This document shows, one piece after another, positions 6,294 to 35,901 of a stretch of DNA of 64,000 nucleotides. The first letter of the stretch is position 1. Each line of letters starts with the position of its first letter. The position numbers and the translations under genes are program-made. Below the pieces are notes generated by a model. The model was not told the DNA's origin. It made no database searches and worked only from the letters and a program-made list of their open reading frames with translations. Source of the DNA: Candidatus Heimdallarchaeum endolithica (GTDB lineage Archaea; Asgardarchaeota; Heimdallarchaeia; Heimdallarchaeales; Heimdallarchaeaceae); the NCBI GenBank assembly GCA_021513715.1, contig CP084167.1, positions 1,024,001-1,088,000 on the forward strand, given 5' to 3'.

Positions 6294-6315
6294 TTTTTTC
6301 TCACATCAACTATGT

Positions 6316-7113
6316 TTACTGACCAATAAAAGATACGAAAACTTCTTTTTCATCCATTTTCAGTTTAAAAACTTGTTTTGCATTGCAAGAAACTTTCAGT
6401 TTTTTGTTTTTAACATTAAAGATTACATGTTCTGCCTTTTTCAGGACTATTCTATCATTTTTGTAGCTTAATGAAACAGGAATGTTAAACAATATTGAGT
6501 AACCTAGGTCCTCAATTTTCATTATTTTCTCGTTTACAGCTTGAACTGGAACAATAGTGTCTAAGTCATATATTCCTTCATCTAGAGGTTTGTAAGCGTA
6601 TTTTCCTTTTAGCTTAATTTCAGCTAGTAAATTAGCATGACCTAAATATGGAGGGTAACAATATTTGTGCTCTTTTAATCTATTGTATAATTTTTCCATC
6701 AGTTTTTCATCTTCAGAAGTGAAAAAGATTCTATAAGCTACATTTCTAAGCATGTTTAGATTGACAGGGGCAGAAAATCCTCTTTGATCCTTTGATTTTA
6801 CTTCATATGGGTCTTTTGCTAGTATAATTTTTATTCCTGAGGCTAGACTCATTGGATATTTTGTTTGTAAGTAGTTAACTTTTATTTTTGTTCTCCATAT
6901 TGGGTTAAGGATTTGTATAGCTATTTTAGCAGAAGACAAAGGGTGATTTTCCCAGTACTCATTACGTGGTAAACCCATTATTCCTGCTATTAAACCTATT
7001 ACTGCAGTCCTAGGTGGAAAAGGATAAGAGATATTCTCTCTCGTGGTATCAAAAGCTCTAAAGTGAGCAAATTCTCCTAGAATGTCGAAAGTAATTAGTT
7101 CATCCATTCTCAT
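6316..7113 (-). CDS. cas5: Type I-B Cas5
   Basis: 'GEFAHFR...SYPFPPRTAVIGLIAGIMG' and 'PYLG' motifs. Confidence 0.95.
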   Translation of the reverse strand: MRMDELITFDILGEFAHFRAFDTTRENISYPFPPRTAVIGLIAGIMGLPRNEYWENHPLSSAKIAIQILNPIWRTKIKVNYLQTKYPMSLASGIKIILAKDPYEVKSKDQRGFSAPVNLNMLRNVAYRIFFTSEDEKLMEKLYNRLKEHKYCYPPYLGHANLLAEIKLKGKYAYKPLDEGIYDLDTIVPVQAVNEKIMKIEDLGYSILFNIPVSLSYKNDRIVLKKAEHVIFNVKNKKLKVSCNAKQVFKLKMDEKEVFVSFIGQ

Positions 7114-7124
7114 TCCCTGTTAGA

Positions 7125-8090
7125 TTATATTTCTTCTAATTGAATGCCTATTTTACTAATAAGATCTGCAAATGAAGAATATTCTTCACCTTTGTATAAG
7201 TAAGTTAATTCTTTCGTCTCCTTGAATTCTATTTTGAGTATCTTGTCTTTGTAGGACTGTAAAATCTCCATGAGTTCATCTACTACAACTTTAGCATCTT
7301 CACAAGAGAGGATATTTTCTTCGTCTTTTAGTTTTATTTTAGTATCTAATCCGCCAATTTGGAATTCATTTTCTTTTGATACAACTGCAAATAGTAGTCT
7401 TGGATTATGATTAAACTTAGAACGAGTATTGAGTTTTTTCGTTCCCATCCATAAACCTTCATACACATTTTTCAGATCTTCTTCGCTAAACTGTGTTTTT
7501 TTGCTATTATATTCACAAGCAATACCATGGAACATTATTAATGAATAATCAACATAGTGAAATTGACCCATTCCTCCAGCTCCTTGTTCTCCAGTAGAAG
7601 ACAAAACAGTAGTTAATCCCATTGTTACAATTTCTGGCTTGTTTAGTGATTTGCCTATTCCAAATTGTACAGGTCCTGTAATTGAAATATTTGCATTTTT
7701 AAAGGTAACAGCTGCACCAAAAGTTCTAACATCTATGTATTTTTCTGGTAATCTATTTTGCAACTCATCTCTTGAAACTTTATCTACATCACTAATTTCC
7801 AGTTCTTTTGTTACTATATCTTGTAAATTCATAACTGTTTTTTTATCATCTTTTAGTACACGTTTAATAAGCACTTGTTTGCTCTGAGACAACCAATAGT
7901 CCCTTATCGTTCTTTTTAGCCTTAAATCTGTTACTAGATTATATCCTTGTTCATCCATTCTGGGTCTGTTCCCATCATCAGGATCACCATTTGGATTTGC
8001 TCGAATAACATCATACACAAAGATTATTTCCCTTCTATTATTCAATAACACATTTTTCACCTCATTTTCTATTTTATTCTTCTGATTCAT
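7125..8090 (-). CDS. cas7: Type I-B Cas7 (Csh2); exact start uncertain
   Basis: 'ANPNGDPDDGNRPR', 'LKRTIRDY', 'DVRTFG' and 'TGPVQF' motifs. Confidence 0.95.
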   Translation of the reverse strand: MNQKNKIENEVKNVLLNNRREIIFVYDVIRANPNGDPDDGNRPRMDEQGYNLVTDLRLKRTIRDYWLSQSKQVLIKRVLKDDKKTVMNLQDIVTKELEISDVDKVSRDELQNRLPEKYIDVRTFGAAVTFKNANISITGPVQFGIGKSLNKPEIVTMGLTTVLSSTGEQGAGGMGQFHYVDYSLIMFHGIACEYNSKKTQFSEEDLKNVYEGLWMGTKKLNTRSKFNHNPRLLFAVVSKENEFQIGGLDTKIKLKDEENILSCEDAKVVVDELMEILQSYKDKILKIEFKETKELTYLYKGEEYSSFADLISKIGIQLEEI

Positions 8091-8490
8091 TTTCTTCTTC
8101 AGATTCCACATAGAAAGTGAAACCCATCATAAAAGCTAAAGAAAGCTCATAATGTGAACTTTCCCACTCATCTTTGCTTAAGAGATCGTTGAGTTTTTCC
8201 CATAGTCTAGCTTCAGTCTTTGATGTACTTTTATTCTTAGAAATCAAGCGTTTTACAACGCTATTGCACTTATCAGCTAATTTGTAGATTTGTTCATTGT
8301 CTAATCTCTTGGTAAGTACAGGAAGTTTTGTGTACAAACTTGTAGTTTTCAACTCTTTTTTCTCTTTATAAGCTAAAGAACTGTAATATTTCCCTATGAG
8401 GAAACTTATTTTTCTATCTGTTTTTTTAAAGAAATCTCTATTGAGATATTCTTCTATTTTAGCATAGTATTTTTCTGCTTTTTCAGACAT
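8074..8490 (-). CDS. cas11: Cas11-like small subunit (equivalent to the Cas8b C-terminal domain)
   Basis: Helical 138-aa protein with 'SFLIG' and 'LAFMMG' motifs like those of TM1802/Csh1 C-termini. Lies between cas8b and cas7. Confidence 0.75.
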   Translation of the reverse strand: MSEKAEKYYAKIEEYLNRDFFKKTDRKISFLIGKYYSSLAYKEKKELKTTSLYTKLPVLTKRLDNEQIYKLADKCNSVVKRLISKNKSTSKTEARLWEKLNDLLSKDEWESSHYELSLAFMMGFTFYVESEEENESEE

Positions 8491-8493
8491 TTT

Positions 8494-10047
8494 TCACACC
8501 AAAACATTCATTTTTTCAAGTAAAGTAAGTGTATAATGAATAATTTCTTTCTTTTCAGAAACAAACCATTTAAGATACGAGGATTCATCACTCTTAATTA
8601 ATGAAGTCCTAAAAGTCTTCCATATTTTGTTGTAAGCTGCTTTATTAAGAGTTTTTCTTCTTATTTTTTTCTCATTGAAAAGAGATTGAATTATCAATCT
8701 GGCCGTTTTTTCTCCATAAACGTCGAATAAGTGTCTAAAGTTAAAGAGGATTGAATTTTTGTAATATTCATCTGTTTCGCTAAGATTTCTAACGATATTT
8801 TTTATTTGGTTTCTATCACCATAGATAAAATCTTCTACTACTTTTTTCGGATTTCCTGCAGCCATTACATCTTCATAGTAAAAATCAATTATTCCCAAAC
8901 TATTTTCTGAAGCTTGTTTAAGCAATTCTCTCAGATCAACGTCAGCAGAACCTGCTAATTCTCCTCCTTTCTTTAAATCTGTAAGTTGCTTTACATAATT
9001 TTTATATTGTCTTTTTTTCTCCTTTTTTTTACTTTTTTCTGTTTTTTCTATAGAAACTAGTAATTCTTCTATTTTACTTCTTAGAGTTTCTTTTTTTGAC
9101 TCATAGATTTTTCTCCTGTATTTACTAATGTTCTTGATAAAAGTTTGAATGGTTTCTATGTCAGAGCTTAAAGGAATAATGCTATGCTTGATATACTTGT
9201 ATTTTTTTTCTCCTAACTTTAATCTATAGGCTTCAAACTTTAGAGTAGAATCTAGTTCAGAATATCCTTGTCTAACTAGCAGTTCACAATCTTTGCATAT
9301 CATAGCTTGTTTGGCATTTTTATTAAACCCTAGTTGGAAATTTACTTGGTCAACAGAGAAAAACTTGAAGAAACTGCACTTCTCTAAAGGAAACAGTTCT
9401 TCTTTTTTTTCTCCACAAGCAATACAGACAACTTCGTCATCAGAAATTTTCTTTTTTCCTTTTGTTGCTGATTTTTGAAGAAGAAAAAGAGTTCTAAAAG
9501 CTTCAATTTCCCCAGGGTATTTTCCATTTAATTGAAAAACAATAAATTTAGGAGCATTTTTTGTAACTACTAACTGCTCTTTATCTTTTTCTTCTGTAAA
9601 TTCTTGAGTAATGCGTTTATACAATTCTTCACATATTTCTTCGATTTTCTGTTCCATAAGCTTAAAGAAGTCAAGAATTATTGGTTCATTTAATTTCTCA
9701 AGAAAAGAATTGTAGTCTGGAATTTTTTTGAAGTTTATGATCTCTCCAGGAGAAAGTTTAGAAAAATCCTTATCATTGCCTTTTTGATATTTAAGGGCAA
9801 ATAAAGGAGAATAATTACGAGAATTGCCAGATGTAACTCCAGGCAAATAAATGTCTATTTTATCTTGGCTTAGATCTTCTATTTCTATTGAAAAAGTGTT
9901 TTCTTCTAAATTTAAGTTACAAACGAAAATTGATGGAGACTTGGTCAACTTTTTTGCTTGTTCTTCTAGTATTATATCTAGTTCACTCTTTGTTCCTAAA
10001 GTAGCCAATCCAATGTTTCTTAATACACTTACTAACATTCTTTTCAC
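8494..10047 (-). CDS. cas8b: Type I-B large subunit Cas8b (TM1802/Csh1-like)
   Basis: Zn-finger CIAC...FKFFSVDQ...ICKDC and position at the head of cas7-cas5-cas3. Confidence 0.85.
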   Translation of the reverse strand: MKRMLVSVLRNIGLATLGTKSELDIILEEQAKKLTKSPSIFVCNLNLEENTFSIEIEDLSQDKIDIYLPGVTSGNSRNYSPLFALKYQKGNDKDFSKLSPGEIINFKKIPDYNSFLEKLNEPIILDFFKLMEQKIEEICEELYKRITQEFTEEKDKEQLVVTKNAPKFIVFQLNGKYPGEIEAFRTLFLLQKSATKGKKKISDDEVVCIACGEKKEELFPLEKCSFFKFFSVDQVNFQLGFNKNAKQAMICKDCELLVRQGYSELDSTLKFEAYRLKLGEKKYKYIKHSIIPLSSDIETIQTFIKNISKYRRKIYESKKETLRSKIEELLVSIEKTEKSKKKEKKRQYKNYVKQLTDLKKGGELAGSADVDLRELLKQASENSLGIIDFYYEDVMAAGNPKKVVEDFIYGDRNQIKNIVRNLSETDEYYKNSILFNFRHLFDVYGEKTARLIIQSLFNEKKIRRKTLNKAAYNKIWKTFRTSLIKSDESSYLKWFVSEKKEIIHYTLTLLEKMNVLV

Positions 10048-10158
10048 GTTTGTTGTAATTATATGTTATCGTAACTTAAAACTAAAATTGACAATTTTAC
10101 TTATAATAAATTGCTTTTTTAGTAAAAAGTTATAGAAAAAAAAACAAAAAATATAACT

Positions 10159-19677: not shown

Positions 19678-20580
19678 ATGGTGAGACAGATGGAAAAATT
19701 AAGAAGTATGGAAAAAACTTATCAAACACTTACTTTTGATAATAAAGTAATTAACTTACCTGGAGGAGAAATATCTTTATCTGTTCTTTCTCAAGAAGAT
19801 ACTGTTATTCCTTCTCACTCAGGTTCTATCGTAAGAGGAGCCTTCTTGAATTTGATCTCAACTATTGACTATTCATTAGCTGATAAACTACATAATGGAA
19901 ATAATGTAAGGCCTTACTCTGTAGAGTCCATAAAAAAAATTAGTGGAGAATACATCAAAAATAGAAGAAATGATTTAATAGTTAAAAAAGGAGAACTCTT
20001 AAAATTAAAACTCAAGGTGCTGGATTCAGATATTTTACGCGCTTTAATTGAACATTTCATGCAATCCTCTCTTCCAAAGATTGATCTTGTTGGTAAAGAA
20101 TATGTTATCTCTGATCTAGTATATAATATTAAAAGAGTTGAACTGAAAAAAAGAGCTTTCAAACTAAAAGTCAATTTCCTTTCTCCAACATACTTTTCAA
20201 TGATTAGTAGAGAGGACTCAATGTACTTCCCTGAACCCAAATATTTGTTCATGAACCTAGCCAAACTCTGGAATCTTTATAATAAAGAAGTATTTATCCC
20301 TGAAAAGCAATTCTACGAATGGTTAGATAAAAACGCAAGAATAAATGATTACTCAACTAGAACTAAAAGAGTTTATATCGGAAAAAGCACCCCCATAAAA
20401 GGATTTCAAGGATGGGCAGTCTACAGATTCTTAGAAGAAGAGAACTTTTTACCTTGGATTCATGTACTAGCCAAGTTCGGAGAGTTATCTAATGTAGGAG
20501 GAAGTAGAACTGCAGGATTTGGAGTAATGAGAGCTAAATGGTTAGACATCAATGAAAATGATGAACAAAAGAAAAAGTAA
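19678..20580 (+). CDS. cas6: Cas6 endoribonuclease
   Basis: 'LH...VRPYSV', 'FLSPTYF' and G-loop 'NVGGSRTAGFG'. Confidence 0.93.
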   Translation: MVRQMEKLRSMEKTYQTLTFDNKVINLPGGEISLSVLSQEDTVIPSHSGSIVRGAFLNLISTIDYSLADKLHNGNNVRPYSVESIKKISGEYIKNRRNDLIVKKGELLKLKLKVLDSDILRALIEHFMQSSLPKIDLVGKEYVISDLVYNIKRVELKKRAFKLKVNFLSPTYFSMISREDSMYFPEPKYLFMNLAKLWNLYNKEVFIPEKQFYEWLDKNARINDYSTRTKRVYIGKSTPIKGFQGWAVYRFLEEENFLPWIHVLAKFGELSNVGGSRTAGFGVMRAKWLDINENDEQKKK

Positions 20581-22421: not shown

Positions 22422-23357
22422 GTGATTTTTTTGACACAGAATATCGAGTATATAGAAGGAATAAGAAATCAATATCAAGTAGCAAAAAGTGAATTAGAAG
22501 AAATTTTCTTTCCTACTGTAGTAACAAGATATTCAGTTATCTTGGGCTCAGGAACAACTTACCACACATATTTAATTGCAAGAAATGCGAATTTAGATTA
22601 TTATAGAATAACACTAAATGGGTTGATAGACCTAAATTTTGGCAAAAAAGTGTGTTTAACTTGTGGGAAAAAAATAAACGAAAACGAAACTAAGACATAT
22701 TGTAATAATTGCACTACTGAGGAAGAAGAAAAATACAAAAACTGTTTATTTCACTCACCTTTCAAATATTACAATAAAAAATGCACATTAGAATATCAAC
22801 CGTGCCAAGTATTAGGAAATAGAGAAAAGTGCTATTCTAAATACATCCTCTATTTTGGCAGATTCGGTGAAAAAATAAAAGTTGGAATATCGAGATTTAG
22901 TTATGGAAAATATAAATACAAAAGAATAATTGAACAAGGTCTAAATGAAGCAATAGTAGTCTATCCATTTAACTCACTCCCTGAAGTGACATTTTACGAA
23001 AGAATGTTGATCGATGAATTAGGTTTAGCAGAAAAGATTACTTTTGAGGAAAAAGTAGAAGCTTTACTTAATCCAACTTTTATTGAAATAGAAACATATT
23101 ATCCTCTAAAACAAATAAAAGAACTCTTTTACAACAAAAAATTGAAAAAAATCGATGTTTATCCTGATAACTTGCTTGAAAATGTAGTTTCATCTTCTTT
23201 TGATATAACACTAAAAAAGAACATCAAGAAATTGAGTGGGACAATAATCTTCACCCAGGGAAACGTGGGAATAATAAAAAAGACAAATGAACTAACATTT
23301 TTTGATATAAGTAAACTTGTAGGAAGAGAATTAGAAAGAAGGAATGAAGAATGGTAG
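22422..23357 (+). CDS. DUF2797-like Zn-finger protein
   Basis: CLTC...YCNNC, further Cys residues, and 'YILYFG...KIKVGISR...RIIEQG'. Overlaps the cas1 start. Confidence 0.7.
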   Translation: MIFLTQNIEYIEGIRNQYQVAKSELEEIFFPTVVTRYSVILGSGTTYHTYLIARNANLDYYRITLNGLIDLNFGKKVCLTCGKKINENETKTYCNNCTTEEEEKYKNCLFHSPFKYYNKKCTLEYQPCQVLGNREKCYSKYILYFGRFGEKIKVGISRFSYGKYKYKRIIEQGLNEAIVVYPFNSLPEVTFYERMLIDELGLAEKITFEEKVEALLNPTFIEIETYYPLKQIKELFYNKKLKKIDVYPDNLLENVVSSSFDITLKKNIKKLSGTIIFTQGNVGIIKKTNELTFFDISKLVGRELERRNEEW

Positions 23358-24385
23358 TATTGGTCTTAACTTCTCACGGAACAAAACTAGGAAGAAAAAA
23401 AGAAATGTTCAAAATAACTAGACCAGATACAGAGTTTCAAGAAGAGCTATTTGCAGCAGAAACAGTAGAAGAAATAATAGTAGAATCTACAGGAAGTATT
23501 TCAACTGAAGCAGTAAAACTGGCTTCAAGATACGCAATACCCATTCTTTTTGTTTATGGTAATGAACCTATAGCCTGTCTGACTCCTTTTGCATCACACG
23601 GAACAGTAAGAGTAAGAAGAGCACAAATTAAAGCCTATGAAACAAAAATAGGAGTAAGATTCTGCAAAGAAATAATAAAAGCAGCAACAGATAACAAAAT
23701 TAAGATAATAAAAGAGATGGTAAGAGTAAGAAAACTAGATAAAAATATAGCAGGAACTATAAAAAATGAAATAAACAAAATGGACTATCTAAAAGCAAAA
23801 CTAAAGGAAATAAAAAAAGAAAAAATAGACGAATGTAGAGAAGAGATATTCACAAAAGAATCAGAGATAACCAAGATATATTATGGCTGCCTACAAAAAA
23901 TGCTACCAAAAGAGATAAACTTCAATGGAAGAACAAGAAGACCTCCTAAAGACCCAGTAAACGTGTTATTAAGCTATGGATATGCAGTGCTAACAGCACA
24001 AATACACAAATCAGTAATAATTGCAGGGTTAGAACCCTACGCAGGTTTTTTACATACAGATAGAGCAGGAAAAGTATCTTTTGTACTTGATCTAATAGAA
24101 ATATTCAGACAACCAGTAGTAGATAGGCTAGCGTTAACACTAATAGAAAAAAAGATGATTAAAAAAGAAGATTTCGAAAAAAGGGAAGAAAATAATGGAC
24201 TGAGAATGAAAGAAAAAACAAAAAAGAAGTTCCTAGAATACCTATTCGAAAAAATTAGAACAGAAAATGTAAACTATAAAGGAATAAAGACAAGCTACCA
24301 GAGAATATTCGTAGATCAAGCAAGGAAAGCAGGAGAGTTCTTCATAAATAAAGTAAATTATGAGCCATACTCAATAAAAAAATAA
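23351..24385 (+). CDS. cas1: Cas1 integrase
   Basis: 'FNGRTRRPPKDPVNVLLSYGY', 'GLEPYAGFLH' and 'SFVLDLIEIFRQPVVD'. Confidence 0.97.
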   Translation: MVVLVLTSHGTKLGRKKEMFKITRPDTEFQEELFAAETVEEIIVESTGSISTEAVKLASRYAIPILFVYGNEPIACLTPFASHGTVRVRRAQIKAYETKIGVRFCKEIIKAATDNKIKIIKEMVRVRKLDKNIAGTIKNEINKMDYLKAKLKEIKKEKIDECREEIFTKESEITKIYYGCLQKMLPKEINFNGRTRRPPKDPVNVLLSYGYAVLTAQIHKSVIIAGLEPYAGFLHTDRAGKVSFVLDLIEIFRQPVVDRLALTLIEKKMIKKEDFEKREENNGLRMKEKTKKKFLEYLFEKIRTENVNYKGIKTSYQRIFVDQARKAGEFFINKVNYEPYSIKK

Positions 24386-24395
24386 AGGGAAAAAA

Positions 24396-24818
24396 ATGGA
24401 ATACATAATATGCTACGATATATCAAAAGATGAAATAAGAGAAAAAGTAGCAGAAATATGCCAAAATAGAGGATTTAGAAGAATACAATATTCAGTTTTT
24501 TACGGAAATGTGACAAAAAATATACTAGAAACAACAATAATGGAAATAAAAGAAAAAACAAAAGGAGAACAAGCAGAAATATTTATTGGACAAATATGTG
24601 AAAAATGCGCGAAAAATAAAATATTCTATGTGTCAGAAGAAAAAAAGAAAGAAAACAAGGCAAATGAAGAGGAAAATGAAGAAGAATTAGAACCAAAAAA
24701 AGTAGAAGAGAAAAAAAATAACAAAAACAAAAAAAGAGAAAGGAAAAGAAAAAACAAAACAAAGACTGATGTACAAACAATTATGGATACTCTAAAGAAA
24801 GGAGTAATTATACTATGA
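24396..24818 (+). CDS. cas2: Cas2 with long charged insertion
   Basis: 'YIICYDIS...RIQYSVFYG' and 'ICEKC'. Confidence 0.93.
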   Translation: MEYIICYDISKDEIREKVAEICQNRGFRRIQYSVFYGNVTKNILETTIMEIKEKTKGEQAEIFIGQICEKCAKNKIFYVSEEKKKENKANEEENEEELEPKKVEEKKNNKNKKRERKRKNKTKTDVQTIMDTLKKGVIIL

Positions 24819-25390
24819 TCAGAGAACAAGTCAGTGAACAAGAAAAGATATGGATAAACTTTGAAGCAGTAAGACAGTTCTTTTATTGCAAAAGAAAAAT
24901 ATATTTTAGATACTGCGCAAAATTCAAAGGATACAAAAGCTATAAAATGGTTAAAGGAACAGAATACCACAACTATAAATTCAAAAGAAAAGAAAAAATA
25001 AATGAAAAAAAGAATTTCTGGGTGGAAAATGAAAAATTAAAAGTGAGAGGATTTATAGACTATATTATAAAAACAAAAGACAATGAAACAATAATAGGAG
25101 ACTATAAACAAAAATATCCATACAAAGGAAAAATACCAGAACAGTATAAAATGCAACTAGTAATAGAAGCAGTCGCTCTTCAACCAAAAGTAAATATAAA
25201 AAAAGTAGAAATAAAATTACCAAAAGGAAAAAAAATACAAGAAGAAATAAAAGAAGAGGAAATAAAAAAAGTAATAAAAGCAATAAAAGAAATAAGAAAA
25301 ATAATAAAAAAAGAAGAAATACCTGAACAAACAAAAATAAAAAGTAAATGTAAAGACTGTGAATGCAGAAATATGTGCCAACCAATGTAA
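24815..25390 (+). CDS. cas4: Cas4 RecB-like nuclease
   Basis: 'FFYCKRK', 'GTEYH', 'GFIDY...GDYK', 'MQL' and C-terminal CxxCxxxxxC Fe-S ligands. Confidence 0.92.
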   Translation: MIREQVSEQEKIWINFEAVRQFFYCKRKIYFRYCAKFKGYKSYKMVKGTEYHNYKFKRKEKINEKKNFWVENEKLKVRGFIDYIIKTKDNETIIGDYKQKYPYKGKIPEQYKMQLVIEAVALQPKVNIKKVEIKLPKGKKIQEEIKEEEIKKVIKAIKEIRKIIKKEEIPEQTKIKSKCKDCECRNMCQPM

Positions 25391-25591
25391 AAATCAAAAA
25401 AAAAGAAAAATTGAGGGAAAAAGATCTTTTATAAACAATTTTTTTCACAAGAGTCATTTATAAATAAAAAATTACACAAAATTTATAAAAAAAATGAATC
25501 TCTTTATAAATGAACTGACAACTTTGACAGATTCAAAAAAAGAGAAAATAAAAAAGGCTCAAAGAGCAATATTATAAAGAAATAGGTATGT
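25391..25591 (+). promoter_or_regulatory. CRISPR leader
   Basis: AT-rich non-coding 200 bp between cas4 and the first repeat, with several TTTATAAA boxes. The degenerate repeats lie at the opposite end of the array. Confidence 0.8.
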
Positions 25592-28500
25592 GTTGCAATT
25601 AGGATCTCAGAATAGTGAGAATTGAAATTTTCCCGTGTAAGCGTTCTAGCAACATAGAAGAAAGCTCGTTGCAATTAGGATCTCAGAATAGTGAGAATTG
25701 AAATTATAGTAACGGAATTTGAAGAAAAGACAAGGTGGTTCTAGTTGCAATTAGGATCTCAGAATAGTGAGAATTGAAATAAACCCAAGCCCGCTCTAAA
25801 CGAAACTGACAAACTCAAGAAGTTGCAATTAGGATCTCAGAATAGTGAGAATTGAAATCATTTTTAGTCCGCCCACTGTTGCTATGATTTGGAAAAGTTG
25901 TTGCAATTAGGATCTCAGAATAGTGAGAATTGAAATACCACCCAACAAATCACAATAAGTGATCTTGATATGCCAGGTTGCAATTAGGATCTCAGAATAG
26001 TGAGAATTGAAATTTTATTTTTTCTATTACAGCCATTTTTTTCACTTCCTAAGTTGCAATTAGGATCTCAGAATAGTGAGAATTGAAATTTTACTTTCAT
26101 TCTTGGTATTAACGAATATTCTAAAACCTGTTGCAATTAGGATCTCAGAATAGTGAGAATTGAAATTGACCATTTTTCTTTCAATTCATCTACTGAATTA
26201 AAAGTGTTGCAATTAGGATCTCAGAATAGTGAGAATTGAAATGAATAATAAATGGTCAAAGTATAAGTTGCTTCTTCTAATTGTTGCAATTAGGATCTCA
26301 GAATAGTGAGAATTGAAATACTGTTGCACATTTCCAGGGTAATTGATTCTTCCATAGTGTTGCAATTAGGATCTCAGAATAGTGAGAATTGAAATCAAGT
26401 CTGTTGTAGTTTTGTATAACTTGTGGAGGATAAGCGTTGCAATTAGGATCTCAGAATAGTGAGAATTGAAATCCTGTTCAAAAGTCATGATTGCTGGTGA
26501 TGGAACACAGGCGTTGCAATTAGGATCTCAGAATAGTGAGAATTGAAATACATCATTTATAAACTGTTGTATTCGCAAACATGCAAACAAGTTGCAATTA
26601 GGATCTCAGAATAGTGAGAATTGAAATTTTATTAGTTCTTCGCTCATTTTTTCTGCTATTAATCGGTTGCAATTAGGATCTCAGAATAGTGAGAATTGAA
26701 ATAATGACAGTAGAGAAGGACATCCAACCGAGCGAGGAAATAAGTTGCAATTAGGATCTCAGAATAGTGAGAATTGAAATTTATTTTTTATACCTATGAA
26801 TGCTTTAACAAGATAAACAGGTTGCAATTAGGATCTCAGAATAGTGAGAATTGAAATCCTTTTGAGGAATCTGACTTCGCTATTAACAGTCTCTAATGTT
26901 GCAATTAGGATCTCAGAATAGTGAGAATTGAAATGATAACTGCCCCTGACCAGAAAAAAGAAACCGCTTTACGTGGTGTGTTGCAATTAGGATCTCAGAA
27001 TAGTGAGAATTGAAATTTATACAAAAAGCAAATACAGGAACAAGAACAGCAGGAGAAGGTTGCAATTAGGATCTCAGAATAGTGAGAATTGAAATACTTC
27101 TGAACGGATCATTATATGCAAACCTTTACCACTGCTTGTTGCAATTAGGATCTCAGAATAGTGAGAATTGAAATCCCTTTTTACTTTTTCCTTTTCCCTT
27201 TCTTCTACTAACTCGTTGCAATTAGGATCTCAGAATAGTGAGAATTGAAATCATAAATTAGATAGAGTAACGTTAATATTACTAATCCTGTTAGTTGCAA
27301 TTAGGATCTCAGAATAGTGAGAATTGAAATTTTGATGGTTTAGACGTTATTATTTCTACTACTGGAAGTTAGTTGCAATTAGGATCTCAGAATAGTGAGA
27401 ATTGAAATTCTATTTTTTCCTTATACGCACTATAAAAAACGTAAGGTTCTGTTGCAATTAGGATCTCAGAATAGTGAGAATTGAAATGGTCTTTACCCCA
27501 TGCAAATACCCATCCCTGCAGTTCATGGTTGCAATTAGGATCTCAGAATAGTGAGAATTGAAATCAGGATAGCAAAGCCAGAGCGTTTTGAAAGAGTCGA
27601 GGAAGTTGCAATTAGGATCTCAGAATAGTGAGAATTGAAATATAAAATCAAGTGCGAATATATCAACAGAAAGAGCACCACTAACGTTGCAATTAGGATC
27701 TCAGAATAGTGAGAATTGAAATAAAACTGTATTTTTTAACAGTTCTCGGAATTTTTCTAAAAGTTGTTGCAATTAGGATCTCAGAATAGTGAGAATTGAA
27801 ATTACATTATATAGTGCTTCAGAAAATTATGAGCGATTTAAAGGTTGCAATTAGGATCTCAGAATAGTGAGAATTGAAATGCTTATACTGAAAAGAAACT
27901 TTGGCTTGCTTCTGGAAATTAGTTGCAATTAGGATCTCAGAATAGTGAGAATTGAAATTCATTTAAAACACCTTTTATAATTCTTCAATTTTAATTGTTG
28001 CAATTAGGATCTCAGAATAGTGAGAATTGAAATTTTTGAATAATTTCTGTTCCATAGGAACTGCTATATTTATGTTGCAATTAGGATCTCAGAATAGTGA
28101 GAATTGAAATTTCTTTTCTTTTGGTTCTTCTGGTTCCGGAGGAAGAACGTTGCAATTAGGATCTCAGAATAGTGAGAATTGAAATAATTTTATAACCGCT
28201 AACTCTATAGATACCTATGAATGGTGTTGCAATTAGGATCTCAGAATAGTGAGAATTGAAATTCCTCTAAATTCATCACTCTTTCAGCTAATATTCTTGT
28301 TGTTGCAATTAGGATCTCAGAATAGTGAGAATTGAAATCTTTAGTTAAATCATTATTTAAACGAGTATTTAATAAAGTTGCAATTAGGATCTCAGAATAG
28401 TGAGAATTGAAATTCAAAAGACAAATAGACTTTCTCTATTCCCTCATCATCAACTGTTGCAATTAGGATCTCAGAATAGTGAGAATTGAAATTTAGTAAT

Positions 28501-31500
28501 AGGAAGACCAGAAGTGAAAAAGATTGCTTTATGTTGCAATTAGGATCTCAGAATAGTGAGAATTGAAATTTCCTATTCCGAGACCCATAGTCCAAATTTT
28601 CTTCAAATGTTGCAATTAGGATCTCAGAATAGTGAGAATTGAAATTTGAACTATGGCGTCGGAAGGCCAATCAAGAAAGGCCTCGTTGCAATTAGGATCT
28701 CAGAATAGTGAGAATTGAAATAACATAATTTAAATTTATCACTATTAAACAGCCTTTTGTTGAGGTTGCAATTAGGATCTCAGAATAGTGAGAATTGAAA
28801 TTTCATCACAGTGTCATCTACTCTTGGGTTTCTATCTAAATCTATGTTGCAATTAGGATCTCAGAATAGTGAGAATTGAAATGCAAGAAACTCTTACGGG
28901 GGCTGGAAAGATTTCGAGAACACGTTGCAATTAGGATCTCAGAATAGTGAGAATTGAAATAACTGGGAGATTGTTCTTCCTTGAAGAACCCATTAATTAT
29001 GTTGCAATTAGGATCTCAGAATAGTGAGAATTGAAATAAAATATAAAAGTCGTTTAAATTATCCTCTTCTTCTTGTTCGTTGCAATTAGGATCTCAGAAT
29101 AGTGAGAATTGAAATACAAAATAAGCAACAGCCCCAGTTCCTCCAGCAAGCAAAAAAGTTGCAATTAGGATCTCAGAATAGTGAGAATTGAAATATTATA
29201 TCAGCTTCAAGAACAGAAACGATGAGCGTACCGGTTGCAATTAGGATCTCAGAATAGTGAGAATTGAAATTTTCTCTAAATCAATATCAGTATATAGTTC
29301 TTTAGTTATTGTTGCAATTAGGATCTCAGAATAGTGAGAATTGAAATTAGAACTTCTTACAACCATCACATTGGAGTAGTTTAGGAAGTTGCAATTAGGA
29401 TCTCAGAATAGTGAGAATTGAAATCTGTTCTATTCCAATAAACACCAAACTTATTTACTCCGTGTTGCAATTAGGATCTCAGAATAGTGAGAATTGAAAT
29501 ATTACATAGCCATATTTTTCTGCCACCTGTTTTTGTGGTGTTGCAATTAGGATCTCAGAATAGTGAGAATTGAAATTTGAATTATTATAAAAATGTTAAA
29601 AACTTTACTACCATGTTGCAATTAGGATCTCAGAATAGTGAGAATTGAAATAAATTTTCTGTTAATTCTTTATATTCTTCATACTTCATTTTGTTGCAAT
29701 TAGGATCTCAGAATAGTGAGAATTGAAATAAAGATAAATGAGTTAGTTTCATCCGAATTTCTAAAAGCGGTTGCAATTAGGATCTCAGAATAGTGAGAAT
29801 TGAAATACAGTTAAGAAAAATATTGAAACCGTATTAGCCAGAAATAATGTTGCAATTAGGATCTCAGAATAGTGAGAATTGAAATACTAGGCAATGATAA
29901 GTAGAATTCTCTAAATTTAGAGGTTGCAATTAGGATCTCAGAATAGTGAGAATTGAAATCTAAATTACGTGTTCTTGATATGAACGAGTCTTTTAAGTTG
30001 CAATTAGGATCTCAGAATAGTGAGAATTGAAATCAAAGCTTGTTTTGGGGTTTCACACCCCAAAATCTTTGAAGTTGCAATTAGGATCTCAGAATAGTGA
30101 GAATTGAAATTTTTGAATCCGAATAATGTTAGAAAACCTACCGCTACAGTGTTGCAATTAGGATCTCAGAATAGTGAGAATTGAAATCGAACTTTTCTTG
30201 AAACTTCTTATAATTATACTCTGACTTTGTTGCAATTAGGATCTCAGAATAGTGAGAATTGAAATTTTGACTTTTACCCTGTTTATCTTTTAGCCTAATT
30301 CAGAGGTTGCAATTAGGATCTCAGAATAGTGAGAATTGAAATCCTATATTTCTTTCTAAACAGCATGGATATATGTTTAATATGGCTGTTGCAATTAGGA
30401 TCTCAGAATAGTGAGAATTGAAATCGAACTTTTCTTGAAACTTCTTATAATTATACTCTGACTTTGTTGCAATTAGGATCTCAGAATAGTGAGAATTGAA
30501 ATCCTTTCTTAATTCTTGAAATTTCAGTAATATCAGTTTCTTGTTGCAATTAGGATCTCAGAATAGTGAGAATTGAAATTATTTATCGTCTACAGGACGG
30601 ACTATAATAGGTTCAATATGTTGCAATTAGGATCTCAGAATAGTGAGAATTGAAATTTCAAAGTAAAATAGTGCCAATACTAACAAAAAATAAAGGAGTT
30701 GCAATTAGGATCTCAGAATAGTGAGAATTGAAATTGTTGAGGATAAATAAAAGCGTCAATATATAAATTTTCATAGTTGCAATTAGGATCTCAGAATAGT
30801 GAGAATTGAAATGGTATTCACTTCCTGTATCCATACGCCCTTTCAACATCTATTGTTGCAATTAGGATCTCAGAATAGTGAGAATTGAAATCCCCGTCGC
30901 CGCTACAACGTAGGTTTTGATTTATCCTGTGTTGCAATTAGGATCTCAGAATAGTGAGAATTGAAATTTCGTGAATGGACCTGGTTAGATATTTGGGCTT
31001 ATATTGTTGTTGCAATTAGGATCTCAGAATAGTGAGAATTGAAATTTTGCTTTCTTATAAAGAACTCTTACAGTGTCCTCAGCAGTGTTGCAATTAGGAT
31101 CTCAGAATAGTGAGAATTGAAATCCATAACTAAAAAGTTCGACCTGAAAACAAATGTTCAAGTTGCAATTAGGATCTCAGAATAGTGAGAATTGAAATGA
31201 CTTACTAAATTTTTTACGTTCAACTTTATCCCTAAATTTGTTGCAATTAGGATCTCAGAATAGTGAGAATTGAAATTCTCTTTTGCCTCCTATTTTTCTT
31301 GTATTGTGTAAGCATCGTTGCAATTAGGATCTCAGAATAGTGAGAATTGAAATCAAATAACGTAGAGTCTTGGACTAACCTTCTCATATTCGATATGTTG
31401 CAATTAGGATCTCAGAATAGTGAGAATTGAAATACTCTCACGATTCTTGCTTATACTTAAAGCGAGAATATCTGTTGCAATTAGGATCTCAGAATAGTGA

Positions 31501-34500
31501 GAATTGAAATCTTGAACTCTATTTTATGCTCATCTTTGATTTTTTGTGCCCGTTGCAATTAGGATCTCAGAATAGTGAGAATTGAAATATACTCACGTGG
31601 GACACGCCCACGTTCGTATAATTATGATTGTTGCAATTAGGATCTCAGAATAGTGAGAATTGAAATTTCAAATCTACTCGGGCAAATTATCAGAAAATAG
31701 CGAAATTGTTGCAATTAGGATCTCAGAATAGTGAGAATTGAAATTCCATTCTTTACACCCCTAACTTGAATTCTGTTGAATTAGTTGCAATTAGGATCTC
31801 AGAATAGTGAGAATTGAAATTGTAAACTCTTTCCCTGCTGTATTAAATAATCATTCAGTGTTGCAATTAGGATCTCAGAATAGTGAGAATTGAAATTTGT
31901 TAGCACCTGTATTCACAGAAAATACATAGTCATTTACGTTGCAATTAGGATCTCAGAATAGTGAGAATTGAAATTCAGTTGTTATTTTCAATTCTCTGAG
32001 CATTTCTCCTTTTGTTGCAATTAGGATCTCAGAATAGTGAGAATTGAAATTTGTAGTTTTCTACTACAATATTGCATTTGGGACAATATATTGTGTTGCA
32101 ATTAGGATCTCAGAATAGTGAGAATTGAAATATAAAATCGCATCTATCTCCCAAAATATATTCAAAATAATGTTGCAATTAGGATCTCAGAATAGTGAGA
32201 ATTGAAATAAATTAACGATTTTGTCGCCTACAATCAACTTTTTATGACTGTTGCAATTAGGATCTCAGAATAGTGAGAATTGAAATTTTACAATTTCATA
32301 ATCATATAATAAAAATCTAAATACTAGTTGCAATTAGGATCTCAGAATAGTGAGAATTGAAATACAGGATAAAAATATATAAATTCCGGATTTTTTTTAG
32401 CAAGTTGCAATTAGGATCTCAGAATAGTGAGAATTGAAATATATACTCAACCAATTGTTTAACAGTATCCCTTTGTAACAAGTTGCAATTAGGATCTCAG
32501 AATAGTGAGAATTGAAATTACTTACTCCTAACCTTAAAAACTCTTCTATCTGTTCTATGTTGCAATTAGGATCTCAGAATAGTGAGAATTGAAATAAAAA
32601 CGCTTTTTCAAGGTCATTGTCATATTCGTTCAATTTCGTTGCAATTAGGATCTCAGAATAGTGAGAATTGAAATATCAGTGAAATTAGTAAATATGGGGA
32701 AATTGTAAGAAGATAGTTGCAATTAGGATCTCAGAATAGTGAGAATTGAAATTTTATATTGACTTCAAATTCAACTTTTTTTGTTTCCTCTAGTTGCAAT
32801 TAGGATCTCAGAATAGTGAGAATTGAAATTGATAGACATAGGTTTATACAAATCAGCCGGAAGATGAAGTTGCAATTAGGATCTCAGAATAGTGAGAATT
32901 GAAATAAAAGCTTTGGAAGAGTGGGCCAAAGAAAATGACCAAGAAAGTTGCAATTAGGATCTCAGAATAGTGAGAATTGAAATTATAAAAAACATGTTCC
33001 AATTATAGACCACAAAACTATCGCAGTTGCAATTAGGATCTCAGAATAGTGAGAATTGAAATTAAAAAACACCCTAGCTTCACTCAAGTACTGGTTCTCA
33101 AAAACGTTGCAATTAGGATCTCAGAATAGTGAGAATTGAAATTGTATGTCCCGTTAATACTGTTGGTACTATGGGCAAAGGTGTTGCAATTAGGATCTCA
33201 GAATAGTGAGAATTGAAATTTGCGATGACCCAAATTCCCGATTTTTCAAGAGGTAAATGTTGCAATTAGGATCTCAGAATAGTGAGAATTGAAATGATGT
33301 GTCCGATAACTTTCAGGTAGGCACAAATGGAACTGTTGCAATTAGGATCTCAGAATAGTGAGAATTGAAATACCTTATTGACAAATGTAGAAAAAGCCCT
33401 TTTACAAGCAGTGTTGCAATTAGGATCTCAGAATAGTGAGAATTGAAATTTTGAATGAAGCTGATGAAAGCATTATTGTTTCGCTTGAAAGTTGCAATTA
33501 GGATCTCAGAATAGTGAGAATTGAAATTCACACTCCTTTTCATATCTAAGTTTGACTATATGTCCATTGTTGCAATTAGGATCTCAGAATAGTGAGAATT
33601 GAAATTTTACATCTTCAACATATTCAAATGAGTTTATGTCTATCAGTTGCAATTAGGATCTCAGAATAGTGAGAATTGAAATTTTCAGTAATTCAATTGA
33701 ATTATATGAAAAAGTTGTTTGTTGCAATTAGGATCTCAGAATAGTGAGAATTGAAATTTGAAAAGCACTTGTTTTTTTCAACTTTTCATACTTCTCTCTG
33801 TTGCAATTAGGATCTCAGAATAGTGAGAATTGAAATGGTGAGCATTTAGCTCTCTTCCTAGCTGTGGAAATTTTCTAGCCAGTTGCAATTAGGATCTCAG
33901 AATAGTGAGAATTGAAATTCATAATTTTTTGAATCTTTTCCATCGCTTCCTTTTTGGTTTGTTGCAATTAGGATCTCAGAATAGTGAGAATTGAAATTAA
34001 AAATAATAAACGAGTTTTTTGCTGACGAACAAAGTTCCAAGTTGCAATTAGGATCTCAGAATAGTGAGAATTGAAATTCTGAATAACTGTTATAATCGGC
34101 ATAGAAAGAAATGCTATGTTGCAATTAGGATCTCAGAATAGTGAGAATTGAAATATTAGAGAACCAAAAACGAGAGAAAAAACCGTATGGCTAAGTTGCA
34201 ATTAGGATCTCAGAATAGTGAGAATTGAAATTTTGATATTTTTAGTTCTCTGAGCATTTCTTCATTGTTGTGTTGCAATTAGGATCTCAGAATAGTGAGA
34301 ATTGAAATATATATTTCAGTTCGTAATCTCTCGCACCCTGATAGTAGCTGTTGCAATTAGGATCTCAGAATAGTGAGAATTGAAATATAAAATGAACATT
34401 CTTAGCACGAACTGAACGTCTTAAGTTGTTGCAATTAGGATCTCAGAATAGTGAGAATTGAAATACATTCGTCACCTACATTAAATTTACTCTTTCTCCT

Positions 34501-34619
34501 ATAAGGTTGCAATTAGGATCTCAGTATAGTGAGAATTGAAATGTTAACTGGACTATTTCAAAAATCTCCCAAGTAGAAAGATGTTACAATTAGGATCTCA
34601 TAAGAAGGAGAATTTAAAT
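25592..34619 (+). CRISPR. CRISPR array, repeat GTTGCAATTAGGATCTCAGAATAGTGAGAATTGAAAT (37 nt), about 117 repeats / 116 spacers of roughly 37-45 nt
   Basis: Counted by hand. Repeat hairpin TCTCA/TGAGA followed by an ATTGAAAT handle. Penultimate repeat (34506) has one substitution and the terminal repeat (34583-34619) is degenerate. Confidence 0.99.
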
Positions 34620-34645
34620 CATTCACTTAAAAGAGAGATAAAGAG

Positions 34646-34915
34646 ATGAGTTGGGTATTATCACTTATTAAAGATTTATACTTTTATTTTTTTATTTTTG
34701 CTATTAATGGTTTGTTCTTTCATATGTTGTTTAACATTAAACAAATCGTAAAATATAATTCTTTGAAAAAAATGAGTATAAAAGAAAGGATGAATGAAAG
34801 GAAAAATTGTGAAATTATCTTAAGTACTGAATACACAAAACCTTCATTAATAACTGATCTACTTGTTATGTTTATTCTTATTGCTATAGCTATTATTTTA
34901 TATCATTATTTATGA
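34646..34915 (+). CDS. Small two-TM membrane protein between degenerate repeats
   Basis: 89 aa, with hydrophobic segments LYFYFFIFAINGLFFHMLF and LLVMFILIAIAIILYHYL. Confidence 0.55.
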   Translation: MSWVLSLIKDLYFYFFIFAINGLFFHMLFNIKQIVKYNSLKKMSIKERMNERKNCEIILSTEYTKPSLITDLLVMFILIAIAIILYHYL

Positions 34916-34942
34916 ACTCTTTTTTTAACACTTAATCCTCTT

Positions 34943-34980
34943 ATTACAATTAGATCTCAAAAGAAGAATAAATTCTAAAC
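34943..34980 (+). repeat. Orphan degenerate CRISPR repeat
   Basis: ATTACAATTAG-ATCTCAAAAGAAGAATAAATTCTAAAC shares TTACAATTAG, ATCTCA and AAGAAG with the degenerate terminal repeat. Confidence 0.7.
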
Positions 34981-35022
34981 ACAAAAATTATTAATATTCT
35001 CTACATTTTGTAAGTAAAAAAA

Positions 35023-35901
35023 ATGAGTGATAGTAACAATTTGTCTTCTGAATTAAATAATAATTCTGATGATTTTTCTTTTTCTGATCCTCTCTTGAAG
35101 TCAAATCTTATTAGTGGTGAAAGGGTCTTTAGCGAATTTTTTATTCCTCACAGGACTATTTCTTTATTTGGTCTTGTTGTTTTGCTATTATCTTTTCTTT
35201 TACCTTTGATAGTTATTTTAGTTGTTCAATTTGGTACTGATTTTTCTAAAGTTGTTAAATACACTATTGATATTATAATGGGTTTATGGTTATTTTTCAC
35301 TTTCTTGTTTTTCTTTTTCATTGGTTCAAGTAATCAATTTCTTGTTATTACTAATTTTCGTTTAATTTACGTTAGAGAGTATTTTCCTTTTTTCCTTAAG
35401 CGGTTTAGGATCCTCAAGGAATTTTCTACTGATATTAACAGTGTTACTCTTGTTGAGCGCAAAAAGTTTTCTCGCCCTGATCCTTTTATGTTTTTTACTG
35501 GGTTATTGATGTTTTTTGTTAGTTTATTTCTTTTCATTTCTATTAAGATCGTTGAGCAGTTTAACATTTCTTCTTTTCCTCAGTATAGAAAAACCATTCT
35601 TATTAGCAGTTCAATTCTTTTGATTCTTTCTTTTATGCTTATTATCTATGCTTTATTCTTTTTCTCCAAGAATATTTACAAGTTGGCTTTTTCCATTGGT
35701 CAAACTTATCCTTTACTTCCTGTTATTGGCAGATTTTTCTCTAGGAGTTTGAAAGCTGGTTATTGGGTTATTTACGGTTGGGAAAAAGATTCAAAGAAGA
35801 TGTATGAAGAAGCTCCTCAACTGTTTTTTTCTTTACAACTTGATGAATCACTTCTTTTTACAAAAAAAATATTAGAAAAAAAGAAGGAAGGAGAAAACTA
35901 G
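35023..35901 (+). CDS. Membrane protein, possible bacterial-PH-like domain
   Basis: Four TM segments and a 'LVITNFRLI' motif. Confidence 0.6.
   Translation: MSDSNNLSSELNNNSDDFSFSDPLLKSNLISGERVFSEFFIPHRTISLFGLVVLLLSFLLPLIVILVVQFGTDFSKVVKYTIDIIMGLWLFFTFLFFFFIGSSNQFLVITNFRLIYVREYFPFFLKRFRILKEFSTDINSVTLVERKKFSRPDPFMFFTGLLMFFVSLFLFISIKIVEQFNISSFPQYRKTILISSSILLILSFMLIIYALFFFSKNIYKLAFSIGQTYPLLPVIGRFFSRSLKAGYWVIYGWEKDSKKMYEEAPQLFFSLQLDESLLFTKKILEKKKEGEN

Follow-up and report, generated by a model that had tools for sequence, protein, structure and literature searches.

CRISPR spacers are thought to obey a tight length rule and to act only as guides, and two repeat copies that abut a foreign fragment without a gap are the hallmark of full-site integration by Cas1-Cas2. 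The closest described departure from ordinary spacer length is locus F of Sulfolobus solfataricus, where an 899-bp fragment resembling the plasmid pNOB8 lies between two repeats; the match to the plasmid is partial, the locus is inactive and leaderless, and the insert is about the size of 13 repeats plus 14 spacers (PMC4390879). Apart from this Sulfolobus case, a search of the accessible literature for giant, oversized or whole-gene spacers found nothing. The locus of Candidatus Heimdallarchaeum endolithica described here resembles locus F in that oversized DNA of a mobile element sits between two repeats of an archaeal array, but differs from it in that the source is matched from end to end, the insert contains one whole gene and is located at the trailer end, the flanking repeats have decayed together, and there are signs of selection. 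New relative to the precedent are thus the whole gene, the identified source, the exact ends and the indirect signs of domestication. The arrays of this archaeon have been described previously (PMC8813620), and a word search of the accessible text of that report gave no mention of the insert.

We analyzed a window of 64,000 nucleotides from the single-contig genome (3,326,783 bp) of this archaeon. The locus within the window combines adaptation genes and a long array with type I-B effector genes, Csx1, a type III-A operon and cas6 (Table 1). At the trailer end of the array, a fragment of a virus-like element forms an oversized spacer between two repeat copies and carries one complete viral gene for a protein with two transmembrane (TM) segments. 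Array-calling tools miss such units because calling stops at the last normal spacer.

Table 1. Positions of the main features of the locus, counted from the first nucleotide of the window
Feature	Position	Strand	Remarks
cas1-cas2-cas4 adaptation genes, presumed integrase	23351..25390	+	like the array, without counterpart at the sister-species site
CRISPR leader, AT-rich	25391..25591	+	near-identical to the leader of array 2 in the same genome
CRISPR array	25592..34619	+	117 repeats of 37 nt; spacers of 37-45 nt
Ordinary spacer	33606..33645	+	36/40 match to the virus-like element
Last ordinary spacer	34543..34582	+	common to the second strain, with 3 differences
Left degenerate (terminal) repeat	34583..34619	+	6 changes relative to consensus, 5 in the second strain
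Candidate TATA box	34613..34619	+	33 nt before the ATG of the ORF; transcription start predicted near 34643
Giant spacer	34620..34942	+	323 bp, 84% identical to L015:9975-10294
Gp157/Gam-like gene stub	34620..34649	+	last 9 codons and stop; 4/4 changes non-synonymous
Intact 89-aa two-TM gene	34646..34915	+	71% identical to viral P0002, dN/dS 0.34
C2H2 zinc-finger gene stub, C-terminal half	34906..34942	-	first His ligand lost (H to K)
Orphan (outermost) repeat copy	34943..34980	+	more decayed, stem lost
Host backbone resumes	34982..35901	+	promoter region; gene of a 292-aa membrane protein with 84% identity to the sister species

A first-pass annotation, made from the sequence alone, had described an intact, co-oriented 89-aa two-TM frame lying between two degenerate repeats, and this description holds, with a gap of exactly 323 bp between the repeats. 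As with an ordinary spacer, repeat copies are present on both sides, in register, and the enclosed DNA is of foreign origin with ends flush to the repeats; however, the length, about eightfold the normal, is not typical of the system and corresponds to no whole number of repeat-spacer units. The alignment with the viral contig spans window positions 34615-34942 (L015:9970-10294, 84% identity), and the local alignment ends at the base preceding the orphan repeat. Just inside the two borders, identity is 17/20 and 16/20, compared with 9/20 and 6/20 just outside. The insert is a contiguous mid-operon stretch of the viral contig, and both neighboring viral genes are cut at its ends. These genes are continuous in the virus (the zinc-finger frame runs on past the junction in the virus and in the gene of an unrelated relative), so the transfer ran from virus to host, and the opposite direction is ruled out. 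An assembly artefact was rejected as well, given that contigs of two runs are 100% identical over the junctions and that a second strain carries the insert. By hydropathy, the encoded protein has two hydrophobic membrane segments around a basic loop; its AlphaFold model (pLDDT 79) shows a helical hairpin in which the middle helix is short. A T7 tract following the stop codon may be a terminator; T tracts are common in this genome.

A protein search, in line with one of the checks proposed initially, identified the source. The sole relative among 5.8 billion clusters and 1.84 billion representatives is P0002, encoded on a virus-like contig from a JGI metagenome on which small ORFs are densely packed. 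The source element spans 27.5 kb (L021, L015 and L023, from JGI samples 3300033150 and 3300033149) and encodes PolB, a DNA methyltransferase, an excisionase-like HTH protein, Gp157/RecE-like and Sak4-like proteins and a protein with a response-regulator domain. The two-TM gene lies at the end of an early-type operon that includes the excisionase-like HTH and Gp157-like genes; the viral copy is promoterless and coupled to the upstream stop. No virion genes (capsid, terminase or tail) were recognized on the 27.5-kb contig, and we accordingly call the element virus-like; the word virus reflects the style of its genes and its targeting by spacers. Four ordinary spacers of the host genome match the element at 82-91%, indicating that it infects this host. 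The element appears distinct from the elements inside the host genome. Scans of IMG/VR and JGI data, and a protein search with the neighboring gene, yielded no further relatives of the element that could serve as an outgroup.

Several other features of the CRISPR systems in this genome were observed. A second array (array 2, G000:C1:1243168-1249104), with 77 copies of the same repeat, a near-identical leader and no cas genes nearby, contains three spacers within a few units of each other that target the same virus-like element as the window spacer at 33606. A DUF2797-like gene (window 22422-23357) overlaps the start of cas1, within the module that is absent from the sister species; it is a possible adaptation accessory and could bear on prespacer trimming. 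An identical 41-nt spacer occurs at window positions 30188 and 30425, three units apart. Two window spacers (26858-26893 and 30034-30069) match sister-species spacers exactly (35/35 and 31/31) in the opposite orientation and within a different repeat family, which implies independent acquisition from shared invaders. At the position corresponding to window 3663-20580, the sister species (G001:C1:948029-961600) has a different type I-B operon and arrays with 30-nt repeats, with no Cas10 match; this is the published local swap of CRISPR operons (PMC8813620). A two-repeat mini-array of the 30-nt family with a single spacer is located at G000:C1:2117967-2118062 (minus strand); the first bases of its spacer are antisense to a tRNA-Cys(GCA)-like anticodon arm, and at the threshold used the spacer has no match elsewhere in the genome. 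A three-repeat mini-array (G000:C1:2085610-2085770, plus strand) and a solitary degenerate repeat (3207074) are both located away from the main 30-nt arrays and are possible regulatory mini-arrays.

The terminal repeat departs from the consensus at positions 4, 19, 22, 24, 25 and 33. The orphan copy, which directly adjoins the insert on its left and the conserved backbone on its right, agrees with the terminal repeat at 22 of the first 25 positions and with the consensus at 18 of 25; A4, G22, A24 and G25 are common to both copies, in agreement with the original observation that they share non-consensus changes. In a related Heimdallarchaeal repeat family, the consensus loop bases are kept and A4 is present; thus, G22, A24 and G25 represent decay, whereas A4 may be an ancestral rather than a derived state. 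The terminal repeat retains a 4-bp stem; the variant loses one stem pair and breaks the conserved 3' handle. When the entire genome was scanned with the terminal repeat (3.33 Mb in 16,632 tiles, both strands, arrays masked), the orphan emerged as the best local match, with a score of 38 against 32 for the next. A chance match is thereby ruled out, and the possibility that the second repeat is not significant, which would have undermined the initial description, did not materialize. This significance rests on the terminal variant, because against the consensus alone the orphan scores only 24, a value reached by about 93 tiles. In Heimdallarchaeota 7H_bin4 (L025, G024:C211), which has a related 36-nt repeat family, a truncated terminal repeat begins with the first ten bases of the orphan.

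The shared non-consensus bases and the flush ends can both be explained by one integration event that duplicated an already decayed repeat. It seems reasonably probable that Cas1-Cas2 integrated an untrimmed viral fragment, by full-site integration, at a decayed trailer repeat, and that this trailer repeat was duplicated in the process. Ectopic integration away from the leader has been documented (PMC8047081). Of the origins proposed in the first-pass annotation, an oversized acquisition or a repeat-targeted insertion with repeat duplication is strongly supported by the viral source and by the arrest of homology at the repeat borders. The insert shares with canonical Cas4-Cas1-Cas2 acquisition the repeat-insert-repeat arrangement, the flush ends, the targeting of the same element by ordinary spacers and a C at position -2. 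It differs from the canonical products in its length, its position at the trailer end, the duplication of a decayed repeat and a likely product that is a protein rather than a guide. The likeness at the PAM is confined to that C: the upstream triplet in the viral copy, which is 15% diverged, is ACT, and the targets of ordinary spacers have TCT, CCG, TCT and TCA (TCN in 3 of 4).

The flush ends could also have arisen without Cas1-Cas2 handling long DNA, if the virus recombined with two adjacent ordinary spacers whose matching viral sites lie about 280 bp apart, the spacers acting as homology arms and the spacer-repeat-spacer segment being exchanged for viral DNA; the decay of the orphan could then predate the capture, and selection would not be needed. 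Spacers against this virus are clustered in the same orientation in array 2, the element encodes Sak4-like and Gp157/RecE-like proteins, with a viral annealing protein making the route feasible, and a TCA triplet is found 37 nt before the right end in the host copy. Nevertheless, an internal TC in that span is expected by chance 43% of the time, the ends of the insert are no more diverged than its middle, and two prior acquisitions, both copying the decayed variant, would be required, so that the shared decay is explained less economically; we consider this route unlikely. Somewhat less plausible still is an ordinary acquisition at the leader end, long ago, when the repeat of the array was what is now the terminal variant, followed by replacement of the upstream array or its conversion to the present consensus. 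Such a history would fit with A4 being the consensus state in the related family, with the orphan adjoining the backbone like a founding repeat, and with the swap of CRISPR operons at this locus between the two species (PMC8813620). It fits poorly with the loss of a stem pair and of the conserved 3' handle in the variant, and no array with the variant as its consensus was found in 83 genomes of the class, GTDB, IMG/VR or JGI metagenomes.

Duplicated repeats around viral DNA could, finally, be left by a provirus that used an att site to enter a CRISPR repeat and then lost most of its DNA by deletion. A temperate phage of Streptococcus pyogenes is known to integrate into a CRISPR repeat in this manner, the element encodes an excisionase-like HTH protein, and short, chance-like resemblances to the repeat occur near both junctions. 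The insert, however, is one contiguous mid-operon piece instead of a junction of provirus ends, and no att site resembling the repeat is present on the 27.5-kb contig, where the best scores are at background; a provirus remnant is therefore highly improbable.

The first-pass annotation had suggested comparing trailers in related genomes. The second strain (ENA records named DOMB18, which we take to be from Guaymas Basin) carries the insert with 5 differences, together with the last ordinary spacer and an orphan that is identical to the one here; the sister species lacks the insert. In that species, no cas1-array module separates the upstream wHTH gene from the 292-aa gene, and homology picks up again at 34982, one base past the orphan. 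No true homolog of the 89-aa gene was detected in 60 relatives or 83 genomes of the class, and the complete sister genome lacks the gene; the alternative that the ORF is a conserved chromosomal gene present in array-free relatives is thus ruled out. Between the ORFs of the two strains, 2 codons differ synonymously and 2 non-synonymously, too few to inform on selection, and other contigs, all short pieces, repeat the variants of the second strain. The differences in the second strain (L019:1-300 compared with window 34428-34705) cluster in the trailer repeats, the last spacer and the first 60 nt of the ORF, compared with 2 in 879 nt of the next gene, which might reflect a recombination tract or raised mutation near the array.

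After the capture, the two-TM gene would have been kept by purifying selection, while the outer repeat and the gene stubs drifted. Comparison of the host and viral copies gives dN 0.134, dS 0.39 and dN/dS 0.34 (P=0.006); only 4 of the 41 changes in the ORF fall in codon position 2, the sole indel is in frame, and the replacements have a mean BLOSUM score of 1.32, compared with -0.2 +/- 0.4 in simulations of neutral change. Of the 8 changes in the two gene stubs, 7 are non-synonymous, and one of these removes a Zn ligand. Since the duplication, the orphan has accumulated at least 3 changes in 25 nt, or about 7 in 37 nt with indels, compared with 0-1 in the left repeat (P=0.056); if the ORF had drifted neutrally to the extent of the orphan, the observed pattern would arise with P 0.02-0.05 and frameshifts would be avoided with P 0.01-0.03. 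The decay of the orphan and the stubs, set against the conservative changes in the ORF, suggests selection in the host, and we consider purifying selection on the gene in the host probable, in a model-dependent sense. This argument leans on a clock of 25-37 nt and fails if the orphan decayed before the capture; furthermore, with a single viral homolog and no outgroup, the conservative changes are not assignable to the host lineage.

The same data can be read as an inert fossil, that is, a true giant spacer of viral origin that persists only because deletion seldom removes trailer spacers behind mutated repeats, with an ORF left intact by the short time elapsed. Retention of trailer spacers that have mutated repeats on either side is indeed known (PMC12839519; PMC8047081). 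The insert differs from the viral contig by 15%, close to the 11% of ordinary spacers (the difference is not significant); because the path from host to virus includes viral lineages on top of this baseline, most of the divergence could be virus-to-virus and the drift in the host small, and a neutral model fits with up to 10 host substitutions (P 0.19-0.59). Moreover, the first 40 nt of the insert are sense to the viral mRNA, so that as a guide this part would be useless for type III targeting. On the other side, the changes in the orphan must postdate the duplication and predict 21-93 neutral changes in the ORF, along with frameshifts, and the stubs have lost a Zn ligand while the changes in the ORF are conservative. 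We regard passive retention as a less probable, tentative alternative, and the overall reading of capture plus retention, leaving function aside, as modestly favored.

In the left repeat, the change G33T removes an in-frame stop and creates a TATA-like box. On a promoter matrix derived from this genome, the box has a modest score of 4.7 bits, at the 59th percentile of genes that lack a ribosome-binding site; this value is reached by 8% of shuffles, and without G33T, which adds about 7 bits, the site scores -2.5 bits. Among ordinary junctions, 2 of 190 score as high, and the handle G at position 33 is also mutated in other terminal repeats of this genome. It is conceivable, if somewhat short of probable, that the gene is expressed either from this box, on an mRNA with almost no leader, or as part of the array transcript. 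A repeat-derived TATA box would account for the conservation of the left repeat alongside the decay of the right one. The left repeat also keeps its 4-bp stem, in contrast to the orphan, so that cutting of the left repeat by Cas6 is possible, and judged from the sequence, release by Cas6 is as plausible a route of expression as the box. A minor possibility is translation through a 22-codon upstream ORF that crosses the left repeat and, as it also does in the virus, ends on the start of the ORF; AT precedes 26 of 190 repeats, and the ribosome-binding signal of this frame is weak in this strain.

For the 89-aa protein, searches of the PADLOC, Pfam and PHROG libraries and fold searches gave no functional family, fold or atlas match: fold searches returned no match with E<1 or only generic helical hairpins, and atlas matches stayed below 0.9. 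Phage T4 Imm, a superinfection-exclusion protein, and class II holins are small phage membrane proteins, and the 89-aa protein resembles them in having about 85-90 aa, two TM helices, a short loop and a viral origin. The likeness is one of size and topology, with no sequence or fold match and, in the family and fold searches, no homology to a characterized superinfection-exclusion family. Given its similar size and topology and its place as the last gene of an early-type operon in the virus, we tentatively suggest that the protein might be an early viral membrane factor of the superinfection-exclusion type, which would protect the host against the virus family that its spacers target.

The first-pass annotation had also proposed a role as membrane effector or toxin; the protein shows no link to any known member of either class. 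CreTA and its variants with protein toxins are CRISPR-regulated toxin-antitoxin modules, and by analogy a holin-like toxin or abortive-infection membrane protein could be held silent by CRISPR processing. The small two-TM hairpin with a basic loop and the placement of the gene within the transcribed unit of the array, after a repeat that Cas6 may be able to cleave, would suit such a role, and degenerate repeats and a small gene beside cas genes are features that the locus has in common with CreTA. Here, however, the gene lies inside the repeat pair on a captured viral fragment, and a seed-plus-PAM scan of the last two spacers and the 5' end of the insert found no self target and hence no guide to the promoter of the gene. 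The viral gene, in addition, ends an early-type operon rather than a lysis cassette, and the PADLOC, Pfam and PHROG libraries contain no match. A silenced toxin is accordingly very doubtful.

The expression of a captured gene invites comparison with integrons, in which gene cassettes are promoterless whole genes between repeated sites that are expressed from signals of the host platform. The two-TM gene is likewise a promoterless whole gene between repeated sites that would be expressed via host-platform signals; unlike integrons, the locus has no IntI or attC, contains a single cassette, and the ends of the insert cut the neighboring genes as in a random fragment. Taken to its full extent, this comparison would make CRISPR adaptation a gene-capture device, in which a viral membrane gene was integrated as a spacer, a repeat mutation became its promoter, and the product was domesticated as a protein-based defense against the same virus family; we consider this complete scenario unlikely as a whole. 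The finding raises the questions of whether archaeal Cas1-Cas2 can integrate 300-bp DNA at a decayed trailer repeat and whether a repeat can become a promoter. It also connects Heimdallarchaeum with a virus-like element of 27 kb that had not been described and puts forward a candidate protein for virus-host interaction. A gene-sized spacer under protein-level selection, if true, would mean that genes can be transferred horizontally and domesticated by way of CRISPR arrays, much as with integrons; beyond storing memories, these arrays may sometimes capture usable genes.
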